NCBI RefSeq assembly: GCF_003334405.1
Contig: NZ_QOWM01000063.1
DNA: 566 nucleotides
Strand: one strand, 5' to 3'
From: Escherichia coli
Lineage (GTDB): Bacteria; Pseudomonadota; Gammaproteobacteria; Enterobacterales; Enterobacteriaceae
Shown: in pieces, positions 58 to 177 of the stretch
How the letters are laid out: each line of letters opens with the position of its first letter
How positions within the stretch are numbered: the stretch's first letter is position 1
Notes under the pieces: model-generated
The model's input: only the letters and a program-made list of their open reading frames with translations
Database searches by the model: none
What the model was told of the DNA's origin: nothing
Made by a program: the position numbers and the translations under genes

Positions 58-164
58 TCACAACCCGAAGATGTTTCTTACGATTCATCATCGTGTTGCG
101 AAAATTTGAGAGACTCACGAACAACTTTCATTGTTCAGTGTTTCAATTTTCAGCTTGATCCAGA

Positions 165-177
165 TTTTTAAAGAGCA
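165..177 (-). promoter_or_regulatory. boxA-like antitermination element in the spacer (minus-strand TGCTCTTTAAAAA)
   Basis: Reverse complement of 165..177 is TGCTCTTTAAAAA, one mismatch from the rrn boxA consensus TGCTCTTTAACAA. It sits between tRNA-Ala and 23S, where the spacer boxA lies in E. coli rrn operons. Function inferred from established knowledge of the rrn Nus-factor antitermination system, not from sequence alone. Confidence 0.55.

Follow-up and report, generated by a model that had tools for sequence, protein, structure and literature searches.

The 566-nucleotide stretch of DNA analysed in this study (hereafter the window) is the 16S-23S intergenic spacer of an Escherichia coli rrn operon, given as the non-transcribed strand. 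Read along the minus strand, the features present are the 3' end of the 16S rRNA (positions 504-566), tRNA-Ile(GAU) (359-435), tRNA-Ala(UGC) (241-316), a boxA motif and the 5' end of the 23S rRNA (1-57), and the spacer is of the tRNA-Ile/tRNA-Ala type. In BLAST searches, the window was matched in all of the 5,426 E. coli genomes searched, with identity per genome taken from the best place in each record (BLAST summaries), and the rrn spacers of many complete E. coli genomes were 100% identical to the entire window. In the first of the identical genomes, that of strain 08-00022, the matching operon adjoins yrdA, which corresponds to the rrnD position. The RefSeq annotation at this locus is restricted to rRNAs and tRNAs and, as had been stated in the initial annotation, the boxA element is omitted at the gene level.

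The plus strand of the window at positions 455-480 is ATCAGACAATCTGTGTGAGCAC, a near-repeat of the leader segment ATCAGACAATCTGTGTGGGCAC which lies directly after the leader boxA and which includes boxC. The sense strand in this region is therefore the trailer side of the RNase III leader-trailer helix of pre-16S.

The boxA motif, the proposed NusB-NusE binding site, is located on the minus strand at positions 165-177. The plus strand at these positions is TTTTTAAAGAGCA, the reverse complement of which is TGCTCTTTAAAAA, present in the pre-rRNA as UGCUCUUUAAAAA. Compared with the consensus TGCTCTTTAACAA, there was a single mismatch (C to A at position 11), with nucleotides 1-10 and 12-13 matching exactly, which is the one-base difference originally described for the minus strand. 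The nine-nucleotide consensus of the literature, UGCUCUUUA (nucleotides 1-9), was matched at all nine positions. The motif starts 63 nt past tRNA-Ala and 120 nt ahead of the mature 23S 5' end, and the location between these two genes that had been assigned to it is correct. It was the only site within the window with no more than one mismatch to TGCTCTTTAACAA; based on the base composition, 0.00086 such sites would be expected on both strands of the window, and 18 of 20,000 shuffled windows contained one or more. When the literature was searched in full text for the 13-mer or the 12-mer, in exact DNA or RNA form, only an unrelated riboswitch paper was retrieved, and the 13-mer was not printed as a boxA in the literature searched.

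All seven rrn operons of E. coli K-12 MG1655 (approximately 6 kb each) were scanned on both strands for sites with two or fewer mismatches to the consensus. Exactly two matches were present in each operon, both on the sense strand, and these were the leader boxA and the spacer boxA. The leader boxA, with the sequence TGCTCTTTAACAA, was located 144 nt ahead of 16S in all seven operons. The spacer boxA, TGCTCTTTAAAAA, was identical in all seven, in spacers of the Ile/Ala and Glu types alike. The motif had been termed a variant, but the word is slightly misleading because TGCTCTTTAAAAA is the fixed form in every E. coli spacer and matches UGCUCUUUA perfectly. The distance from the spacer boxA to 23S was 111 nt in rrnD and rrnG, and 120 nt in rrnA, rrnB, rrnC, rrnE and rrnH.

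The region between the last tRNA and 23S was aligned for the seven K-12 operons together with the window. The Ile/Ala and Glu spacers were unrelated up to TTTGCTCTTTAAAAA and almost invariant from there on, with homology between the two spacer types starting only at TTTGCTC. In K-12 rrnD and rrnG, a different segment that is 9 nt shorter (CTC---TGAAGTG) replaces CACGATGATGAATCGTAAG (window positions 77-95, minus strand) in the stretch that separates boxA from the 23S stem, and this accounts for the position of their boxA at -111 rather than at -120. The window carries the long form CACGATGATGAATCGTAAG despite the rrnD position of the operon in strain 08-00022, which suggests an exchange of spacer variants between operons.

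A boxB-like hairpin, ACUUCAGAGUGUACCUGCAAAGGUUCACUGCGAAGU, was predicted on the minus strand at positions 180-215 (-15.5 kcal/mol, z = -2.65), ending 2 nt before boxA. Two unrelated sequences found at the same place in the Glu-type spacers were also predicted to fold (-15.9 and -10.3 kcal/mol) and ended 1-2 nt before boxA, and the K-12 spacers therefore contain three versions of the hairpin (Ile/Ala type; Glu type of rrnB, rrnC and rrnE; Glu type of rrnG). The structure and the position of the spacer hairpin are kept without conservation of its sequence. A hairpin just ahead of boxA was also found in both leader variants, that is, in the boxB-then-boxA order of rrn operons. Antitermination in rrn operons reportedly does not require boxB. 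No base pairing of boxA itself was predicted in either the minimum-energy or the centroid fold of a local RNA of 59 nt, nor in the centroid fold of the whole spacer. This prediction fits the recognition of boxA as single-stranded RNA.

To extend the comparison to other bacteria, a conserved segment from the 5' region of 23S, GGTGGATGCCYTGGCA, was used as an anchor, and 120 loci were obtained from a collection with one genome per species. The specificity of the 16-nt anchor GGTGGATGCCTTGGCA for 23S is imperfect, and a few of the 120 loci are not rRNA operons, such as a Klebsiella MAG contig (L078) where the anchor matched by chance in a protein-coding region (501-516). When diverse bacteria were scanned by Hamming distance with the E. 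coli 13-mer, sense and antisense strands gave similar results at 3-5 mismatches. This indicated that the 13-mer scan was too centred on E. coli, and the cross-species comparison was instead based on a degenerate core and on 7-mer enrichment free of any preset sequence. The motifs that recurred in the Hamming scan included TGTTCTTTGAAAA, which is found in Bacilli, and TGTTCTTTGACAA, which is shared by several other phyla.

The 7-mers were counted in 88 non-redundant regions of 300 nt upstream of 23S. The commonest on the sense strand were GTTCTTT and TCTTTGA (18 of the 88 regions each) and TTTGACA (16 regions). These three outranked the words contributed by tRNAs and by the 16S 3' end, and on the antisense strand each was present in only 2-3 regions. 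The degenerate core YTCYTTRAMA was present on the sense strand in 20 of the 88 regions, one of these matches (L094) being the 16S 3' end CACCTCCTTA; it was found in 0/88 on the antisense strand and in 0/88 of the 23S-internal controls, and shuffling gave a mean of 0.4 and a maximum of 3. The carriers of the core included Bacilli, Heliorestis, Vibrio, Pseudomonas, Glaciecola, Pantoea and Sphingomonadales, and further carriers were found among Bdellovibrionaceae, Myxococcales, Gemmatimonadota, Rhodothermia and Marinimicrobia. As judged from these motif counts, the spacer boxA is widespread and strand-specific in bacteria, rather than universal at the stringency of YTCYTTRAMA. The spacer boxA of other bacteria (TGTTCTTTGAAAA, TGTTCTTTGACAA) resembles that of E. 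coli in its core, its strand and its location upstream of 23S; it differs in having T rather than C at position 3 and G rather than A at position 9 in most non-gammaproteobacterial lineages, and in its distance to 23S, which ranges between roughly 50 and 270 nt.

The spacer element reportedly antiterminates and affects the efficiency of 23S synthesis, according to work by Berg et al. in 1989 and by Pfeiffer and Hartmann in 1997, as cited in PMC6614797 and PMC4807359. In E. coli rrn operons, boxA and boxB are present in both the leader and the spacer, NusB:NusE recognises boxA (consensus UGCUCUUUA), and modification of RNA polymerase at boxA, in leader and spacer alike, suppresses Rho-dependent termination (PMC6614797). 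The earlier statement that this is a known functional element in Nus-dependent antitermination is borne out by the literature (PMC6614797, PMC10250234, PMC6614801). The present analysis contributes the sequence, strand, position, uniqueness, hairpin and conservation of the element, and Nus binding, antitermination and 23S yield are taken from published work. With these lines of evidence combined, we are highly confident that positions 165-177 of the minus strand are the spacer boxA of an E. coli rrn operon, a Nus-loading antiterminator element. Both the form and the position are canonical for this textbook cis-acting element, which was already known, and the copy in this window is an ordinary one.

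The leader boxA TGCTCTTTAACAA, which is located downstream of P2, and the spacer boxA are identical at 12 of 13 nucleotides, including all of nucleotides 1-10. They are also alike in lying on the sense strand, in being preceded by a boxB-like hairpin and in occurring once each per operon. They differ at position 11, which is C in the leader and A in all seven spacers, and in their distance to the gene that follows (144 nt before 16S for the leader, and 111-120 nt before 23S for the spacer). In the crystal structure of NusB-NusE, the base-specific contacts are restricted to boxA nucleotides 1-8 (PMC3177189). As these contacted nucleotides are all consensus in the spacer boxA, we infer that the C to A change at position 11 would be neutral for NusB-NusE binding; the published affinities are those of the leader form, NusB:NusE binding the boxA of the rrnG leader with a Kd of 5-8 nM (PMC2800207).

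The same position may matter for cleavage by MazF. The leader boxA contains a MazF ACA cleavage site (PMC12541390), whereas the spacer boxA with A11, UUUGCUCUUUAAAAAUCUGG as RNA, contains no ACA, and the nearest ACA triplets on the sense strand are at window positions 141 and 134. As the fixed C11 to A change removes the ACA, the spacer boxA may escape cleavage and be resistant to MazF.

The boxA of phage lambda nutL and nutR is also a single-stranded NusB-NusE site which nucleates a processive antitermination complex (PMC2800207, PMC3177189). The order in lambda is boxA-spacer-boxB, with the N protein bound by boxB, whereas the order in rrn operons is reversed and the N protein is not involved. 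NusB:NusE binding to the lambda boxA is also approximately 10-fold weaker than to the rrn boxA (PMC2800207).

The most likely sequence of events at the spacer boxA is as follows. The nascent RNA would fold the boxB-like hairpin, and single-stranded UGCUCUUUA(AAAA) would emerge just after it and be bound by the NusB-NusE(S10) heterodimer. NusA, NusG, SuhB and S4 would then join, so that the rRNA antitermination complex (rrnTAC) would be formed or renewed on RNA polymerase before the 2.9-kb untranslated 23S gene, and the modified polymerase would resist Rho-dependent termination and elongate faster. A second boxA would be needed in the operon because the co-transcriptional excision of pre-16S by RNase III presumably removes the leader boxA. 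The spacer boxA would stay tethered to the polymerase, and because of this tethering the neighbouring 5' strand of the leader-trailer helix of pre-23S would remain close to the RNA exit channel until the trailer has been transcribed, as in a 'delivery' or chaperone model.

The last of these steps is the basis of an alternative reading, in which the spacer boxA binds Nus factors but has as its main job the tethering of pre-23S RNA for folding and processing, rather than the blocking of Rho. It differs from the antiterminator reading in the dominant output only, and such a tether would aid RNase III processing and 50S assembly. The 19 nt directly 3' of boxA (146-164, minus strand; UCUGGAUCAAGCUGAAAAU / TCTGGATCAAGCTGAAAAT) were predicted to be the 5' strand of a long-range pairing with the 23S-5S spacer. 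In rrnH, 17 of these 19 bases are complementary to AUUUUCAGCCUGAUACAGA / ATTTTCAGCCTGATACAGA in that spacer (L002, approximately 5405-5423), and the duplex (-21.1 kcal/mol) was better than 100 of 100 shuffles and better than every window inside 23S. The 25 nt following boxA were then compared with the 23S trailer in the 12 non-redundant loci for which both were available, E. coli rrnH included. The duplex with the trailer beat all 100 shuffles and the 23S-internal controls in 8 of the 12 loci, namely E. coli and 7 of the 11 others (two Neobacillus loci, Heliorestis, Sphingomonadales, Glaciecola, Solirubrobacterales and Pseudomonas), and the Vibrio locus was borderline.

Closer to the mature rRNA, the 19 nt directly upstream of 23S (58-76, minus strand) are the leader side of the RNase III processing stem of pre-23S, and in a cofold of rrnH an uninterrupted pairing of this strand with the 3' end of 23S and the trailer was predicted. 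The pre-23S leader-trailer helix has been described as having 27 bp, and a second boxB-boxA-boxC set has been placed upstream of the 23S gene (PMC10250234). In the leader, a GU-rich boxC lies 18-19 nt downstream of boxA (PMC10250234), whereas no GU-rich copy of boxC was seen by eye at that distance past the spacer boxA, where the bases that are predicted to pair with the trailer are found instead. The GU-rich sequence GGGUUGUGAGG is present in the processing stem, approximately 100 nt downstream of the spacer boxA.

The predicted pairing of the boxA-adjacent strand with the trailer, which is based on energy, fits the delivery model, in which the rrnTAC retains the nut-like elements of both leader and spacer and presents 5' regions to their emerging 3' partners (PMC6614801). 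Mutations of the leader boxA, moreover, affect the quality of 30S and not just its yield (PMC10250234). Against tethering as the main job, the long-range pairing was predicted from energies, with shuffles as controls, and not from covariation, the tethering experiments were all performed on the leader and 16S rather than on the spacer and 23S, and the spacer element is credited with antitermination activity and with an effect on the efficiency of 23S synthesis. We therefore regard it as rather unlikely that tethering outweighs antitermination at this element. A related proposal, tentative and less likely than not, is that in many phyla the spacer boxA abuts the 5' strand of a leader-trailer pairing that extends the pre-23S helix, as the duplex predictions suggest, and that its conserved job would be to tether this strand to the polymerase until the trailer emerges.

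The spacer boxA also overlaps with a match to the Rfam family StyR-44 (RF01830), at positions 65-173 of the minus strand, with a score of 123.3 bits compared to a gathering score of 54 (E = 3.7e-21) and spanning the full length of the model (positions 1-107). The match begins at nucleotide 5 of boxA and stops 8 nt short of the mature 23S 5' end, at what we take to be the RNase III cut position. StyR-44 shares with the spacer boxA the last 9 nt of boxA and continues through the downstream spacer to that point; it differs in lacking boxA nucleotides 1-4 and in being a family of cloned RNA fragments, rather than a protein-binding signal. A growth-rate-regulated species of 109 nt was cloned, and northern blots detected it in both S. 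Typhi and E. coli (PMC2943607).

The strong Rfam match over positions 173 to 65 and the growth-rate-regulated 109-nt species on northern blots could be read as signs of a free-standing regulatory sRNA whose 5' part is the conserved block, with the likeness to boxA being secondary. We consider this very improbable. With its start inside boxA and its end at the RNase III cut site, the fragment looks as if it was excised; its discoverers describe it as part of the ribosomal operon and as processed from longer precursors, possibly being a metastable maturation intermediate (PMC2943607); and the family covers boxA only partly, while the cross-phyla conservation centres on the boxA core. StyR-44 is thus probably an excised spacer fragment, a by-product of spacer processing and not an independent gene. 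Rfam matches to OxyS, HPnc0260 and Plastid-ycf2 were well under their gathering scores, two of them being antisense to tRNAs, and were discarded as chance matches.

The notion that 165-177 is a functionless chance likeness has practically no probability left: the spacer is AT-rich and the 3' half of the motif (AAAAA) is of low complexity, but only about 0.0009 sites would be expected, the motif is invariant across seven operons whose upstream spacers have diverged, and its cross-phyla conservation is strand-specific, so that the operon comparison, the cross-phyla enrichment and the expected-site count have effectively refuted it already.

The preferred reading of this site as the Nus-loading spacer boxA has consequences mainly for annotation. 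The element, a genuine regulatory RNA signal, is missed by annotation at the gene level, and the value of recording it lies in a complete annotation of the locus, where it marks the presumed loading or renewal point of the rRNA antitermination and chaperone complex for 23S synthesis. It also serves as a reminder that the 'sRNA' StyR-44 of Rfam, probably a remnant of spacer processing, overlaps with a cis-acting element that was already known. If the tethering proposal is true, it would extend the 'delivery' model of 16S to 23S, with the E. coli strand at 164-146 finding its partner approximately 3 kb downstream.
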